DNA from: Octopus vulgaris
Taxonomy: Eukaryota
DNA: 64,000 nucleotides
Assembly (NCBI GenBank): GCA_951406725.2
Contig: OX597827.1
Location: 25,482,001 to 25,546,000, forward strand
Direction of reading: 5' to 3'
Each line of letters starts with the position of its first letter. Position 1 is the stretch's first letter. The notes under the pieces were generated by a model. That model had not been told where the DNA came from, made no database searches, and saw only the letters and a list, made by a program, of their open reading frames with translations. Position numbers and translations under genes: made by a program. This document shows, piece by piece, positions 5,605 to 63,775 of the stretch.

Positions 5605-7636
5605 TATTTCATAAATTTGTCATATAGACAGTACAAAGAGCTTTGCGGGCTGGACAAATACATTAATGAATGGAAATGAAATATAATGAATAAATGAGAG
5701 ACGAAACCCAACACCCGCCGATTGGATTTTTTTCGAAAACACATTTTCTTTTTTTTTTTTAAATCAATATGAGGTTTCGAACCTTATACAAGGAGGAGGC
5801 ACTAAAACCTCTTACTTAACGTGTTTTCTTTTTTTTTTCTTTCTTGAAGCAAAAAATTGAGGTTATAAACCATTACAAAATAATCCAATAAGGGTCTTTC
5901 ACCTCCTACTCTTCGATATATCCACTGATATATTCATCATTATCTTCAATGCCGCTTGAGTTCCTGTATCCCGCAATTTCCCATGCCACACTCATGTAGG
6001 ACATGTAAGTCGTGTAAGGGCCACCCGGCCATATGCGACACTCCTCCCCAAATCCTTTAAGCCTTTCCCACAAGGGAAACCTTATGACCTCCACAGCTAT
6101 CTGCGGAGGCCATTCGGGATCCCGTGTGAAGGGCATATCTACTGTTTTTTTATGTTCTTCTACTATTTTTCCACCTCCCCGCCCTTGTAGAAAAAGATAA
6201 TTAATTGATCATCTTTAAGGGTGGGGGTTGTTTCTTCCACAGTGGGTGGCACAACTTCGGGACATGCAGTCGGCACATCATCTCCCCGCTGAGATGACCC
6301 GTTCTTCTTCCTTCTTTTTTCTTTTCTTCCTGGCTTCGGGAGAGTGGAGCTCTTCCGCTTTGTCCGGAGACTCTTCCCCGCCTTCCGAAGCCTTAGGTTC
6401 CTTCGGCGGGCAACTATTGTTGCCCGCCTTCTTCCTTTTTAATCCTTTTTGAGTTGAGGAGGCTGAAGCCTCCTCGACCACATCCACCTCTCCCTTTGAG
6501 CAAGTAGGGGAGGTGGCATCTAGTGACTGTTCCAGGACCTTACCATGGCCCTGGGGGCAGTTCCTTTTAATGTGGCCTGGCTGCAAGCACGAGTGACACT
6601 TTGGGGGACGTCCCTCAAGTATCACCAGATACCTGCAGCCAGCCATTTTCAAGAAATCTGGAAAAACTAGTTCTGTTGTGGCCGATGGGGCCCACAGGGT
6701 CAAAATCGCTTTTGACCCTTCCCAATCGACCGCCGGCAATATTCTTACATTTAAGAGCCTGGGCCCGCCATCCCCCGTCCCCGTCGGATGGTATATTCAA
6801 TCCAATCCACTTCGGTGCCCGGGGGGGAGCCCACATACCTAGACTCGAATTAATTTTCTTTAACAATATGACGGGAGAAACAGAATTTCCTTGCCTTCTA
6901 AAGGCTGACTCGCAAACTGGCGAGCCTTTTCCCCGTTGTCAAACAGCAACCATACGGTTGCATGTTTGACACCACGGGATATATATTTTACAGAGGACAA
7001 ATGTTCTTTAAGTTCATTTTTTATGACTTGTTTTGGGAAGACGGTGATGGAATTAAGAACTTTAGAATACGTTCTAAGTACCATCGTCTTCTCCTCCGTA
7101 TCTTTTAACCATTGCTTAGACGGGTTAATTTCCCACCCTAAGACAGAGTTTTTCTTTTTAAGTTCCTTCACCGCCATGTCAAAAAACAGTTCAAAAATTA
7201 GTTCAAAAGACAGTCTGCCAAAAAGTTAAACCGAATAAAAATTAAACAAAAATGAAAGAGGAGGGGAGTAAACTGAAATTAAACTAATGAAAAGAATGAA
7301 CCAAATTTAGAAAGAAAGAAACAATAGAAGGGAAAAGTAAAAGAAAAACCTCACAAACAGCACAGACGGGTATCTTTTGTATAATACTCCAAAAAGGTAA
7401 TCCAAATGGCTTATTCTTATTTTTCTGGCGAGATACGCCCACTAGAATTCACAAGAAGAATTTTCAAAAAAATTCTCATTTCACCGTTACGGTGTTGAGA
7501 ACCCATTATTTTGCTCGCTATAGCGAGCCATAATTGACATTTTTTCTTTTTGTTATTTTTTTCTATTCGCGGAACTGAAACTCAGATCTACTAACTGTAA
7601 CAGTCCAGACAAACTAGTGTTGCATTCTGGATAAAC
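5605..7636 (-). mobile_element. ORF1-only non-autonomous non-LTR retroelement (L1/Tx1-like ORF1), ~2.03 kb
   Basis: Flanked by the direct repeat AAGCTACTT (5596-5604, 7637-7645), which splits one SINE. It holds a frameshifted ORF with a CCHC knuckle, has AATAAA at the 3' junction and shows no RT or endonuclease motifs. Confidence 0.7.
6278..7177 (-). pseudogene. Frameshifted ORF1/gag-like nucleic-acid-binding protein with a CX2CX4HX4C zinc knuckle
   Basis: Three consecutive overlapping ORFs (7177-6860, 6866-6615, 6739-6278). The ATG lies in a GACATGG context. Motif EGRPPKCHSCLQPGHIKRNCP is followed by a basic low-complexity tail. An RRM-like fold upstream is inference. Confidence 0.75.
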
Positions 7637-7680: not shown

Positions 7681-7751
7681 TAGCAGAGCGTAGTTTCGAT
7701 CTACGGACATCTGCGTTATGGGCCCAGCACGTTTCCACTGCACCACACTGC

Positions 7752-7752
<1 letters not shown>
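7681..7752 (-). tRNA. tRNA-iMet: Initiator tRNA-Met (CAT), probably a pseudogene
   Basis: The 72-nt minus strand AGCAGTGTGGTGCAGTGGAAACGTGCTGGGCCCATAACGCAGATGTCCGTAGATCGAAACTACGCTCTGCTA has the A1:U72 pair and the ATCGAAA T-loop diagnostic of eukaryotic initiators. The acceptor, D and anticodon stems each carry one mismatch, and no oligo-T terminator follows. Confidence 0.88.
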
Positions 7753-8254: not shown

Positions 8255-8287
<33 letters not shown>

Positions 8288-8590
8288 AGAAATATTGAAT
8301 TTCTAAATCTCTCGTAGAGACATGTACGGTGGTGGGGCGATAGAATGGTTGTATACTGTGAATCTAACAAGAATGTGACAGTAGGGGGTACACCACTGCT
8401 TTATAGCCCTAGGAAGCATCGAACGCCTCCTGATAGCTTTGACACATTTTTTCCCTGTGTCCTTATATACATATACGAAGGGGAGACGTATATGTATATA
8501 AGAACAGAGGGAAAAATGTGTCAAAGCTATCAGGAGGCGTTCGATGCTTCCTAGAGCTATACAATTACGAAGTCGAGGCAAATATCACCA

Positions 8591-8670
8591 GCTGACCGGT
8601 GTCTGCTACTCTAGGCCGATGAAGGACAACGATCCTGAAACACGGTGTCCCTAGATGCAGTTCCGGCAGC
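8591..8670 (+). ncRNA. Type I hammerhead ribozyme, family A copy 1
   Basis: TCTAGG-CCGATGA-AGGA caacga TCCT-GAAA-CAC g GTG-TC^-CCTAGA. Stem I extends by CTGC/GCAG and GCTG(a)CCGG/CCGGCAGC. Predicted cut is after C8649. The core has a U4C variant. Confidence 0.8.
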
Positions 8671-8955
8671 CGGGGGTGTTTGTCTCCCCTTCGTATATGT
8701 ATATAAGGACACAGGGAAAAAATGTGTCAAAGCTATCAGGAGGCGTTCGATGGTTCCTAGGGCTATACAGCGGTGGTGTACCCCCTACCGTCACGTTCTT
8801 GTTAGATTGACAGTATTCAACCATTCTATCGCCCCACCACCATACATGTCTCTACGAGAGATTTAGAAATTCAATATTTCTTATTTTGATAATCAGTGAA
8901 TAAACTTCACTGAATATACATATATACAATTACGAAGTCGAAGCAAATATCACCA

Positions 8956-9035
8956 GCTGACCGGTGTCTGCTACTCTAGGCCGATGAAGGACAACGATCC
9001 TGAAACACGGTGTCCCTAGAGGCAGTTCCGGCAGC
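8956..9035 (+). ncRNA. Type I hammerhead ribozyme, family A copy 2
   Basis: Same core as copy 1, with a perfect stem I CTCTAGG/CCTAGAG. Predicted cut is after C9014. Confidence 0.82.
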
Positions 9036-9280
9036 CGGGGGTGTTTGTCTCCCCTTCGTATATGTATATAAGGACACAGGGAAAAAATGTGTCGAAGCTA
9101 TCAGGAGGCGTTCGATGGTTCCTAGGGCTATACAGCGGTGGTGTACCCCCTACTGTCACGTTCTTGTTAGATTGACAGTATACAACCATTCTATATAGAT
9201 ATATATACACATATATGTATATATATGTAAAATTTCGAAGAAAATTAAAATTTATCTTATATAGTAGCATTTTCAAACTT

Positions 9281-28407: not shown

Positions 28408-28469
<62 letters not shown>

Positions 28470-28472
28470 GTA

Positions 28473-28505
<33 letters not shown>

Positions 28506-28630
28506 CAACATCACAATCAAGGAACGGCCATAATAGGCCATTCACCCACTAGAAATAACAGCCAAAAGCTTTAACCGCAAAATAACATTAATTCCGTAAA
28601 CCAGGAGAAAATTGAAAAACTTTTACCCTG

Positions 28631-28739
28631 TATTTCTTAGACGATGCACCGTTTCATCTACCGTTTAATGGTAAACTAACCTGATTAAATTAAATCAAGC
28701 CAATCCACCATAGGCCCTTAGACTCATCAGTAAGAAATA
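28631..28739 (-). ncRNA. Type I hammerhead ribozyme with a long stem II insertion, family B copy 1
   Basis: TATTTCTTA-CTGATGA-GTCTA[insert with a 19-bp hairpin]TAGAT-GAAA-CGGTGCATCG-TC^-TAAGAAATA. The core is canonical, stem I is a perfect 9 bp, and the GUC site is at 28640. Confidence 0.88.
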
Positions 28740-29134
28740 GCCAAGTCGGAACAGATATTTTTCACGAGGCATTCCTCTTGCTACCTCGGCAATATCTGAC
28801 CTAAAATTTTCAAATCGTCGCACTCGCGCCAAATTTATCGGCAGCAAATAAATATAAGCCACCGATTCCATTACGGAACTAACCAGAAAATTCATAATTA
28901 ATCAATATAGGGTGGCAAAAAAAAAAAAAAAAAAATTTTTGTAGAATTCTTTTGCCACCAGCGGCCTAGTAGGAAAAAATTAAATAGTCATAAACTATTT
29001 TTACGTTCAACATCACAATCAAGGAACGGCCATAATAGGCCATTCACCCACTAGAAATAACAGCCAAAAGCTTTAACCGCAAAATAACATTAATTCCGTA
29101 AACCAGGAGAAAATTGAAAAACTTTTACCCTGTA

Positions 29135-29241
29135 ATTTCTTAGACGATGCACCGTTTCATCTACCGTTTAATGGTAAACTAACCTGATTAAATTAAATCA
29201 AGCCAATCCACCATAGGCCCTTAGACTCATCAGTAAGAAAT
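29135..29241 (-). ncRNA. Type I hammerhead ribozyme, family B copy 2
   Basis: Core and stems identical to copy 1 (8-bp stem I). The GUC site is at 29143. Confidence 0.88.
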
Positions 29242-30010
29242 AGCCAAGTCGGAACAGATATTTTTCACGAGGCATTCCTCTTGCTACCTCGGCAATATCT
29301 GACCTAAAATTTTCAAATCGTCACACTCGCGCCAAATTTATCGGCAGCAAATGGCAAAAGAATTCTACAAAAATTTTTTTTTTTTTGCCACCCTATATTG
29401 ATTAATTATGAATTTTCTGGTTAGTTCCGTAATGGAATCGGTGGCTTATATTTATTTGCTGCCGATAAATTTGGCGCGAGTGCGACGATTTGAAAATTTT
29501 AGGTCAGATATTGCCGAGGTAGCAAGAGGAATGCCTCGTGAAAAATATCTGTTCCGACTTGGCTATTTCTTACTGATGAGTCTAAGGGCCTATGGTGGAT
29601 TCTTGATTTAATATATATATTATAGATGAAACGGTATATTACAGGGTAAAAGTTTTCAATTTTCTCTGGTTTACGGAATTAATGTATATATGGGTGAATG
29701 GCCTATTATGGCCGTTCCTGATTGTGATGTTGAACGTAAAAATATTTATATATTTTTCCTATATGGTGCATTCTACAAAATACATACATTACATACATAC
29801 ATACATACATATATATATATGGGTGTTTCTTTGTAATCATATTTGCCTCCCACCACTGCTCGACAACCACTCTTGATGTGTTTACGGCTAGTAACTTAAA
29901 AGTTCGGCGGCAAAAGTGCCTGATTGAGAAAATCCCGGTTTTAAAGAAATAATTACTGGCATCGATTCATTCCGGTAAAAATATTTCAAGGGTCCAATGA
30001 CTGCAACAAG

Positions 30011-61487: not shown

Positions 61488-62780
61488 CAAGGGGCGTTCA
61501 ATAAGTAATGCCCCTGACCCACTTCCCATAGCAGTAGAGCAACGAAACTTGGCACAGTTATTAGTCTTTTTCTACATAGGAACCACCCAGAGTTACGCGT
61601 TTCTCCCATCGTTTGATGCATCGCTGGAGACCGTTTTTGTAGAAGACCCCAGCTTGGTCCTCCAACCACGACGTGACTTTAGAAATCAAGGCTGCATCAT
61701 CTGTGAAATGCTTTCCTTTCAAAAACAACTTCATGGCTGGGAAAAGGTGAAAATCAGAGGGTGCAAGGTCAGGAGCGTAGGGGGGATGGGGGAGGAGTTC
61801 ATAGCAGCACGCCTGTGCTTCTGATCTGGCGACACGCGAGTTGTGGACCGGAGTGTTGTCCTGCAGGAGGAGGATGCCTTTGCTGATCTTGCCCCACCTC
61901 TTGATTTTGATAGCTTCTCTTAATTTCCTCAAAAGTGAAGCATAATAGGCTCCTGTAATTGTGGTACCCTTTGCCAGGAAATCTGTCATCACTACTCCGT
62001 CCTGGTCCCAGAAGACTGTGAGCATGACCTTACCAGCGGAGGGCTTTACCCTTGCATTCTTTGGAGGAGGTGAGTCACGGTGCTTCCACTGCATTGACTG
62101 GGCTTTGGTCTCTGAATCATAGTGATGGACCCAGGTTTCATCCTGTGTAATCAGTCTTTTGAAAAATTTTGACTCATCTTCTTGGCACATCTCCAAATTC
62201 ATCCTCGAGCACTCGACGCGTTCTTGCTTCTGGAAAGGTGTGAGCAACCTGAGAATCCATCTGGCAGACACCTTTTGCATATGCAAATGGTCATGAATGA
62301 TAGTTTCCACAGACCCGGTACTAATCTTGACCTCATGAGCTATTTGGCGAATAGTTATGCATCGATCTTCCAAAATGGCAGCCTCAACTTGACGCACAGA
62401 TGCCTCATCAATGGCAGAAGGGGGGTGACCAGATCTGGGAGCTGTTTCCACAGAGTTCCGACCATGTTTGAATTCACGATGCCAGCGTTTTACAAGGTCA
62501 TATGATGGGGCATCATCACCATCAGTTACTTTCATTTCATCAAAAGTCTCCTGTGGTGTGCTTCCTTTCAAATACAAAAATCGGATCACTGCTCGACACT
62601 CAACAGGCTCCGTTTCACACTTGACTCAGTTCAAACACCTGTAAATCAGAAACCACAATTAGCTCAGAGCTGTAATTTGCCACTTAATCTATAGAGATAT
62701 ACATAATTGCACATGCAAACTTTCAGCTAGATCAAACAACTGCAAGTGGGTCAGAGGCATTACTTATTGAACGTCCCTCG
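61488..62780 (-). mobile_element. Full-length mariner transposon (1293 bp) with a TA target-site duplication
   Basis: ~37-bp TIRs C(A/G)AGGG(G/A)CGTTCAATAAGTAATGCC(C/T)CTGACCCACTT, with TA at 61486-87 and 62781-82, inside a (CATA)n tract. Confidence 0.96.
61561..62613 (-). CDS. Mariner DD34D transposase, open frame but the start codon reads ACG
   Basis: TQDETWVH / LQDNTPVH / YAPDLAPSDFHLF, with exactly 34 residues between the last two Asp. No internal stops. An in-frame ACG at 62613 sits where the ATG is expected. Confidence 0.9.
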   Translation of the reverse strand, partial: TEPVECRAVIRFLYLKGSTPQETFDEMKVTDGDDAPSYDLVKRWHREFKHGRNSVETAPRSGHPPSAIDEASVRQVEAAILEDRCITIRQIAHEVKISTGSVETIIHDHLHMQKVSARWILRLLTPFQKQERVECSRMNLEMCQEDESKFFKRLITQDETWVHHYDSETKAQSMQWKHRDSPPPKNARVKPSAGKVMLTVFWDQDGVVMTDFLAKGTTITGAYYASLLRKLREAIKIKRWGKISKGILLLQDNTPVHNSRVARSEAQACCYELLPHPPYAPDLAPSDFHLFPAMKLFLKGKHFTDDAALISKVTSWLEDQAGVFYKNGLQRCIKRWEKRVTLGGSYVEKD

Positions 62781-62807
62781 TACATACATACATATATATA
62801 TATATCG

Positions 62808-63775
62808 GAACTCCACCGATTCAATTTTGACATCGTATCTCTCAGTGAAACCCGGAGAGCCGGAGAAGGCCGGCTGAGAGAAGAAGGCGGTCAATACACC
62901 TTTTTCTGGAAAGGTTACGATCCCGACCACCAACGGATCCATGGTGTGGGTATTGCAATACGAAACACCATCCTATCGAAACAGACAGAGCAGCCTATTG
63001 GAATGTCCGCACGACTCATGACCCTCCGAATCCAGCTTGTCAAAAGTCAGCACGCAACTATCATCAGTGCGTATGCTCCCATCCTTGACGCGGAGGATTT
63101 AGTCAAGGAGGAGTTTTACAGCCAACTCGACAGCATTCTCTCTACCGTCCCAAAGGACGACAAGATCATTCTCCTGGGAGATTTCAACGCCAGAGTTGGG
63201 AGAGATCGTGAACTCTGGACAGGAACCATCGGAAAGGAAGGAGTGGGAAAAGTCAATGCCAATGGAACTCTGCTACTCAACAAATGTGCTGAACATAACC
63301 TGGTGATAACCAACACCCTTTTTCGCCAGAAGAATCGATATAAGGTCTCACGGCAGCATCCAAGATCGAAACAATGGCATCTCATCGACTATATCATCGT
63401 GAGATCCCGAGACCAGCAAGATGTGTTGCTCACCAGAGCCGCCACTGGAGCAGATGAGTGCTGGACAGATCATCGCCTCATCGCCTCCACCATGAAAATC
63501 AAACTCCGACCAAAAGTGAAGTATCACAGCAAGGAAAGCAGAGTAAAGAAATTCAACATCGAAGCACTGCAAGACCCAAAAACTCGTGTTGCTCTACAGG
63601 TCAATCATCAAAATTAGACTCCAAACCATCTCGTCGAAGAAAATTGGAACCAGCTGAAAGAAACCATCATCACCGCTTGCGAAGAAACCATCGGCCGCAA
63701 GAAAAGGAAACACCAGGACTGGTTCAACGACAATGATGAAGCTCTCAAAGAACTGGTCGACCAAAGGAGGAGGTA
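62808..63775 (+). pseudogene. RTE-clade LINE fragment: APE endonuclease domain
   Basis: DIVSLSETR..YTFFWKG..GVGIAI..RLM..IISAYAP..LLGDFNARVG..NTLF..HPRSKQWHLIDYIIV..TDHRLI. A frameshift occurs near 63610 and the fragment ends before the RT. Confidence 0.93.

Follow-up and report, generated by a model that had tools for sequence, protein, structure and literature searches.

Judged by its sequence, the locus described here is one young insertion of a protein-free, tandem hammerhead retroelement, that is, a non-LTR retrozyme, and every retrozyme feature that could be tested was found in it. With considerable confidence, we propose that it was copied by the reverse transcriptase (RT) and GIY-YIG endonuclease of a Penelope-like element (PLE). 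Copying by Penelope-type enzymes is likely the reason why insertions of this family end at two fixed points, one per side. The locus lies in a 64,000-nucleotide stretch of the Octopus vulgaris genome (contig OX597827.1, positions 25,482,001 to 25,546,000), to which we refer as the window.

Structure of the locus

The insertion consists of two unequal arms between microsatellite sequences (Table 1). A preliminary description of this DNA had recognised the tandem ribozymes, but had missed the inverted arm, a broken third ribozyme within it (core at 29573) and the microsatellite flanks. The inverted arm matches the direct arm up to about position 29601. Past this point it is riddled with deletions and TA-like replacements, and can be recognised to about +206 (unit positions are counted from the cut site), heading towards end site B. 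The degradation of one arm into a mixture of element and (TA)n, seen in the window at 29602-29780, was also observed at two other loci (L094 and L096). Such degraded arms are probably assembly consensus artefacts of filled and empty alleles at polymorphic insertions.

Regarding the retrozyme features, the family is arranged in tandem units, each with a type I hammerhead, in arrays of up to at least 18 units. It has no coding frame and no LTR, with no frame of 170 aa or more overlapping the locus, and its dispersed copies carry target duplications of more than 4 bp. The 503-nt monomer originally proposed agrees with the distance between the two predicted cut sites, but is peculiar to this locus, which has a longer T run; most units measure 490-492 nt.

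Table 1. Features of the insertion and its flanks (window coordinates)
Feature	Position	Strand	Remark
Whole two-armed insertion	28505-29780		One insertion; minus-strand tandem arm and inverted plus-strand arm
Direct arm	28505-29351	-	Runs from unit position +294, across a complete unit, to a 3' end of site A type at +136; about 1.7 units in all
One unit, cut site to cut site	28640-29142	-	503 nt; most copies 490-492
Hammerhead copy 1	29135-29241	-	Type I; core start 29233; predicted cut after C29143
Hammerhead copy 2	28631-28739	-	Core start 28730; predicted cut after C28640
Hairpin within stem II	29171-29214; second copy 28668-28711	-	19 bp, six G-U pairs
Stem III	29145-29154	-	3 bp with a tetraloop that is palindromic; 10 nt self-complementary; GC or AU at the centre of the loop, depending on subfamily
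Predicted hairpin, UUGAUU stretch and end site A	29007-29045	-	+126 to +138; internal copy
Predicted hairpin, UUGAUU stretch and end site B	28894-28960	-	+243 to +253; internal copy
Inverted arm	29352-29780	+	Starts at unit position +186; joined head to head to the direct arm
(TA)n target, left flank	28410-28505		
(ATAC)/(TA) microsatellite, right flank	29780-29819		

Other features were observed elsewhere in the window. At 61564-62625 (minus strand) there is a 354-aa frame with mariner-type transposase domains (Transposase_1, HTH_48), and at 62688-63614 (plus strand) a 309-aa frame with a LINE-type endonuclease domain (Exo_endo_phos). A 172-aa frame with a CCHC zinc knuckle (6281-6796, minus strand) is probably a LINE ORF1 remnant. 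A tRNA-like match of 31.8 bits that adjoins a long (TA)n run (7681-7752, minus strand) is probably a tRNA-derived SINE head.

The repeat family in the genome

A pattern describing the long-stem ribozyme was searched in the whole genome (2.8 Gb, 227 contigs) and gave 2,722 matches, against 3 for a reversed control pattern. For the unit itself, 40 of 923 candidates were scored and gave at least 230 matches, those of full length being 93-100% identical and mostly 490-492 nt long. Several subfamilies could be distinguished, up to about 10% apart. Within the youngest subfamily, the best-matching arrays provided 161 hammerhead copies, of which 142 have exactly the sequence found in the window; one array entered this count through two overlapping loci.

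To describe variation, 115 arrays were compared at the lineage level, and the core was found to vary only at N7 (U, A, C or G) and H17 (C or A). Among 19 haplotypes, hand-picked as distinct types, stem I, the basal part of stem II and stem III show one two-sided change each, that of stem III being a GC/AU swap which keeps the palindrome. Because the core varies only at these two positions and each stem has one compensatory change, the ribozyme is, on this comparative evidence, under selection across subfamilies. The identity of the young copies and a core variation of the kind expected under selection bear out the initial view of a recently active ribozyme element. Contigs of four sequencing runs, which are not recorded as RNA, cover 25 of 30 bins for each run and include subfamily variants; strand, ends and circles are not readable from contigs.

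The hammerhead and its folding

Both minus-strand copies are intact type I hammerheads, open at stem I and with three stems around a CUGANGA / GAAA / UH core. In detail, each has CUGAUGA, then GAAA, U16.1 and C17, which bears out the perfect core reported at first. Stem I has 8 bp, or 9 bp in the second copy, which is one base short. The 5 bp of stem II surround 58 nt (7+19+6+19+7), i.e. a 7x7 internal loop and the 19-bp hairpin. The word canonical, which had been used for this hammerhead, is slightly overstated in view of pair 10.1-11.1 closing stem II: it is G-U in one of the 19 haplotypes, that of the window, A-U in the other 18, and never G-C. A G10.1-C11.1 pair is the usual, not an absolute, hammerhead feature. 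In the accessible text of PMC4209133 it is given as highly conserved. The 7x7 internal loop could stand in for the missing usual terminal loop in the contact between loops 1 and 2.

Rfam reported no ribozyme at gathering score, with Hammerhead_1 (RF00163) at 22 bits against a cut-off of 34; for Rfam, it is therefore true that short-stem descriptors miss the element. Matches to Rfam microRNA families were set aside, as they reflect the inverted arms only.

The stem III stretch, correctly described before as self-complementary, is predicted to form a 10-bp self-duplex of -14.1 kcal/mol. In the predicted minimum-energy fold, the core is paired with stem III, and this fold lies 5.2 kcal/mol below the active one (3.4 in a second subfamily). 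Because of this misfold and the self-duplex of the palindrome, dimer-assisted cleavage is plausible in terms of the predicted folds; monomer activity is also possible, as stem III has 3 bp and a tetraloop. Dimer-acting hammerheads of newts, axolotl and PLEs, as presented in the accessible parts of PMC4209133 and PMC6765202, likewise have a loop 3 whose palindrome makes an intermolecular stem III possible, and the GC/AU swap found here preserves the palindrome as in their loop 3. Unlike them, the octopus hammerhead has a stem III of 3 bp with a tetraloop, and G10.1-C11.1 is replaced. In frog retrozymes, one of nine predicted dimers cleaved, according to the part of preprint 10.64898/2026.07.22.740005 that was consulted.

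The hairpin inside stem II

The 19 pairs, six of them G-U, that had been noted within about 58 nt of stem II were confirmed, as was their pairing on the minus strand only. On this strand the folding energy of the hairpin is -21.7 kcal/mol (z -8.7; none of 200 shuffles did as well), compared with -5.3 kcal/mol (z -1.7) on the plus strand. All six non-Watson-Crick pairs of the insert are G-U on the ribozyme strand, which points to an RNA-level cause behind the strand asymmetry; either selection or A-to-I editing during copying would fit. An accessory domain selected for RNA structure, as proposed at first, is no more than a candidate reading: the asymmetry is real, but none of the 19 pairs covaries, and A-to-I editing predicts the same asymmetry.

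At the level of single pairs, 14 of the 19 are invariant among the 19 haplotypes, three have one-sided changes and two depart by mismatch only, one of these being broken in 16 haplotypes. In this comparison of copies for covariation, which had been suggested as a check, not a single pair has a two-sided change. The distal 13 bp and the loop are almost invariant across subfamilies, and the full 19-bp form occurs mainly in the youngest. Between lineages, 0 of 32 sites are variable in the distal hairpin and loop, against 62 of 370 elsewhere in the unit. Given the lack of variable distal sites, the insert is conserved in sequence. Most likely, the long stem II is a conserved extension that spares the core and is perhaps recognised by sequence.

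A neutral extension of stem II, with no selected accessory domain and with G-U pairs that are fossil A-to-I edits fixed in RNA-mediated copying, is a serious contender that falls somewhat short of being probable. The missing two-sided changes and the pair broken in most haplotypes would be in line with it. Three stem II changes that mark the youngest subfamily are A to G, and a weak tendency in the same direction exists inside single arrays, where A>G was counted 15 times on 96 A and T>C 10 times on 140 T. Moreover, another invariant run, of 43 nt, sits elsewhere in the unit. Against neutrality stands the lack of variation in the distal hairpin and loop, together with the failure to find an insert-free relative: a short-stem-II version of the ribozyme pattern had 4 matches against 3 for its control, which is chance level. 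In a metagenome scan, the hairpin as query had 0 matches.

Insertion ends

In this family the 3' ends of insertions are fixed and the 5' ends are variable. The 3' end is either at site A (about +131, range +126 to +138 from the cut) or at site B (about +249, range +243 to +253), each directly after a predicted hairpin and a UUGAUU stretch. The preliminary description had rightly seen a ribozyme element, but had left it unplaced among known retrozymes and had missed these Penelope-type ends.

The choice of loci for the end counts took no account of the ends themselves; it relied on similarity or on location in the first two contigs. The first set comprised 58 merged loci: 38 two-armed (34 A+B and 4 with one unclassified end, among them the degraded arm of the window), 18 one-armed (12 B, 6 A) and 2 incomplete. 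The second, mostly from other subfamilies and taking in the 2 completed loci of the first, comprised 59 loci, of which 46 are two-armed (38 A+B, 1 A+A, 7 with one unclassified end) and 13 one-armed. Altogether, 72 of 84 two-armed insertions are A+B, and so have an inverted, 5'-truncated copy with a tail at one end, as PLE mobilisation would leave it; one was scored A+A, none B+B, and 11 have one unclassified end. By eye, the end in the single A+A case shows the B motif, preceded by an internal deletion. At four of seven loci checked (L013, L095, L104 and L119) a target duplication is visible and measures 14-15 nt, the other three being in near-pure TA. The rule of one end of each type suggests that both starts are used in a pair, one per target strand, as far as this can be read from genomic copies.

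UUGAUU occurs three times per unit, at positions 121, 224 and 431 (window 29022, about 28905 and about 29201). The first two copies precede site A and site B, and the third lies within the invariant portion of the stem II hairpin. The hexamer could be a common protein-binding word, or chance.

The variable 5' ends of the arms fall all along the unit: 5 of 197 lie no more than 5 nt from the cut, against about 4 expected. A cut linear monomer was therefore rejected as template, and a circle or an uncut multimer would fit the absence of enrichment. Rare variants were present in all units of both arms in 10 cases and in one arm only in 2; 11 were mixed and 101 single. Since they are fixed in both arms so much more often than in one, they suggest that each insertion goes back to a single template lineage. 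In array L168, the two arms show four differences. The register of unit variants within arrays offered too few informative sites, probably owing to CpG decay.

A second retrozyme and Penelope-like elements in the same genome

The window contains a second, unrelated retrozyme at 8285-9194, with a 365-nt unit (8650-9014) and a type I hammerhead with a CCGAUGA core and a short stem II, for which Rfam listed no hammerhead up to E 10. It has an inverted arm, (TA)n flanks and two ends 55 nt apart. In the genome it has 2,048 candidates, and 16 of its 19 two-armed insertions are A+B.

An autonomous PLE (L275 4202-8472, G000:C8) has a 4,271-bp tandem unit with frames of 454 aa and 775 aa, the latter combining RT and GIY-YIG domains with a cysteine-pair linker ahead of GIY-YIG. 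It carries a minimal hammerhead with a CCGAAGA core and has 25,358 first-look candidates. Over 300 residues, 129 of the 131 copies listed are 100% identical in amino acids, and we consider the element, on its sequence, very young and intact. Eight of its 11 two-armed insertions are A+B and three have one unclassified end. A second intact PLE family (L071 430-5670, G000:C16) has a 781-aa frame with RT and GIY-YIG; both families end in (TA)n and have two end sites, and the tail of the 781-aa family is about 38 nt (L072). By eye, the pLTR of this family shows a likely hammerhead variant with U3-A8 replacing C3-G8, and repeated motifs that we take to be CCAAT/CRE-like.

The approximately 490-nt retrozyme unit has no RT/GIY-YIG frame and is not itself an autonomous PLE. 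BLAST of both retrozymes against 30 endonuclease-bearing loci, and against the 4,271-bp unit, gave no homology between retrozymes and the PLE families compared; of 6,136 endonuclease candidates for this partner search, the best 150 were scored. One 53-nt match within the endonuclease-bearing loci was traced to a truncated piece of retrozyme lying in (TA)n.

Comparison with described elements

Metazoan non-LTR retrozymes, as treated in the accessible text of Cervera and de la Pena 2020 (PMC7229834) and Li et al. (10.64898/2026.07.22.740005), are similar to the octopus family in their tandem non-coding units, type I hammerhead and low GC, in having no LTR, PBS or PPT, in target duplications of more than 4 bp and in the presence of PLEs in the same genome. 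In coral, mussel and axolotl, tandem retrozyme transcripts self-cleave and circularise (PMC7229834). The unit of about 490 nt is above the 150-450 nt given in PMC7229834 and within the preprint's range of 51-972 nt. In the portions of these two sources that were available, we found no description, for metazoan retrozymes, of the inverted arms, the microsatellite targets or the pair of fixed ends observed here. The words inverted, microsatellite, octopus and cephalopod are absent from the main text of PMC7229834, insertion ends are not discussed in the consulted part of the preprint, and the octopus genome repeat annotation (PMC13282606), in its accessible part, uses neither ribozyme nor retrozyme. 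In the literature available to us, we found no description of a long-stem-II retrozyme or of paired retrozyme ends; supplements could hold long-stem or cephalopod examples.

Endonuclease-bearing PLEs, with the microsatellite targeting of the Neptune type and Poseidon from anole (PMC11167929, PMC8557442, both in part), share partial tandems accompanied by an inverted copy that is 5'-truncated, a tail at one of the ends, targets that are AT-rich or (TA)n, and 3' ends downstream of the hammerhead. The octopus element is unlike them in having no ORF, a full-size rather than a minimal hammerhead and no homology to the pLTRs tested. Whereas helix II measures 4 bp in canonical hammerheads and 7-8 bp in the minimal ones of PLEs (PMC4209133, accessible text), its stem II is extended by 58 nt. 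In eight Naiad cases, hammerhead half-cores lie 35-50 nt apart, according to the accessible part of PMC8557442; these split half-cores may be similar long-stem ribozymes.

How the element may be copied

The following sequence of events would account for the insertions. Tandem units would be transcribed, and the hammerhead, probably aided by dimerisation via the palindromic stem III, would cut out the monomer of about 490 nt, which a host ligase would circularise. A Penelope-type protein would then bind the region +100 to +250 and make a staggered cut in AT-rich DNA. From the two 3' ends of the target, cDNA would be primed on one and the same RNA, at site A for one end and at site B for the other. 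With a circle or an uncut multimer as template, both cDNAs would continue past the ribozyme site over a varying number of units, and would be joined head to head. In the accessible text on the anole PLE, cDNA is primed internally at two sites in vitro, and the tail is the sequence between the starts (PMC11167929). Likewise, the available part of PMC8557442 describes PLE insertions with an inverted copy, a tail on one end and a (TA)n bias.

Some observations count against this proposal. PLE tails are reported to be 30-40 nt, and those observed here are about 105-118 nt, three times as long. Furthermore, the PLE families compared have no homology to the retrozyme, the predicted misfold lies below the active fold, pair 10.1-11.1 is never G-C in the 19 haplotypes, just one of the nine predicted frog dimers cleaved, and the arms of L168 differ.

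With the same element and enzyme, the inverted arm could instead arise by fold-back or template switch onto the first cDNA, the second fixed end being produced by endonuclease resolution and not by a second priming. This route also predicts variants common to both arms, and endonuclease-mediated resolution has been proposed for the PLE tail (PMC8557442, accessible part). We consider it unlikely, since either arm may be the longer one (arm A in 26 and arm B in 45 of 71), there is no correlation in length between the arms (r 0.11), the arms start at different unit positions, and in vitro the protein of the anole PLE acts on both target strands, which it cuts and extends, and starts at two sites (PMC11167929, accessible part). 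An ordinary satellite or MITE spreading at the DNA level, its ribozyme a relic, would fit the tandem units, the terminal inverted structure and the local satellite-like amplification discussed in the consulted part of the retrozyme preprint (10.64898/2026.07.22.740005), but is largely refuted and highly improbable given the fixed 3' ends with variable 5' truncation, the unequal arms, the end type in common with the autonomous PLE and the ribozyme-type core variation.

The preferred reading, copying by a Penelope-type enzyme with paired priming, can be extended tentatively, and the extended form is rather doubtful. One ribozyme circle of about 490 nt would be read at once by both subunits of a Penelope-type RT dimer. 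At each of the two sites of hairpin and UUGAUU, about 118 nt apart, the RNA would be passed to one of the strands of the staggered cut, and both subunits would roll round the circle. The G-U hairpin of stem II would serve as a sequence-specific handle, keeping the ribozyme inactive while in the circle.

Implications

In the animal retrozyme literature, PLEs have been named as likely mobilisers from shared ribozymes, co-occurrence and pLTR similarity (PMC7229834, 10.64898/2026.07.22.740005, accessible parts), and the preprint argues from the latter two that retrozymes derive from PLEs and are non-autonomous. Here, a PLE footprint is seen on the insertions themselves, in two unrelated retrozyme families and an autonomous family of one genome, all under a near-strict rule of one end of each type. 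Such ends are the signature of the Penelope 'tail', and so provide genomic evidence on how retrozymes move. This signature is more informative than the long stem II, which is itself unusual and means that standard descriptors undercount genomic hammerheads. Because the footprint occurs alongside young, intact enzymes, what moves retrozymes and how the tails and inversions of PLEs form can be tested in one system. If a single circle is indeed read by both RT subunits, this would be direct evidence of retrozymes as SINE-like parasites of PLEs, paired priming would explain both the PLE tail and the inversion, and the circle would be a minimal RNA substrate for a telomerase-related RT.
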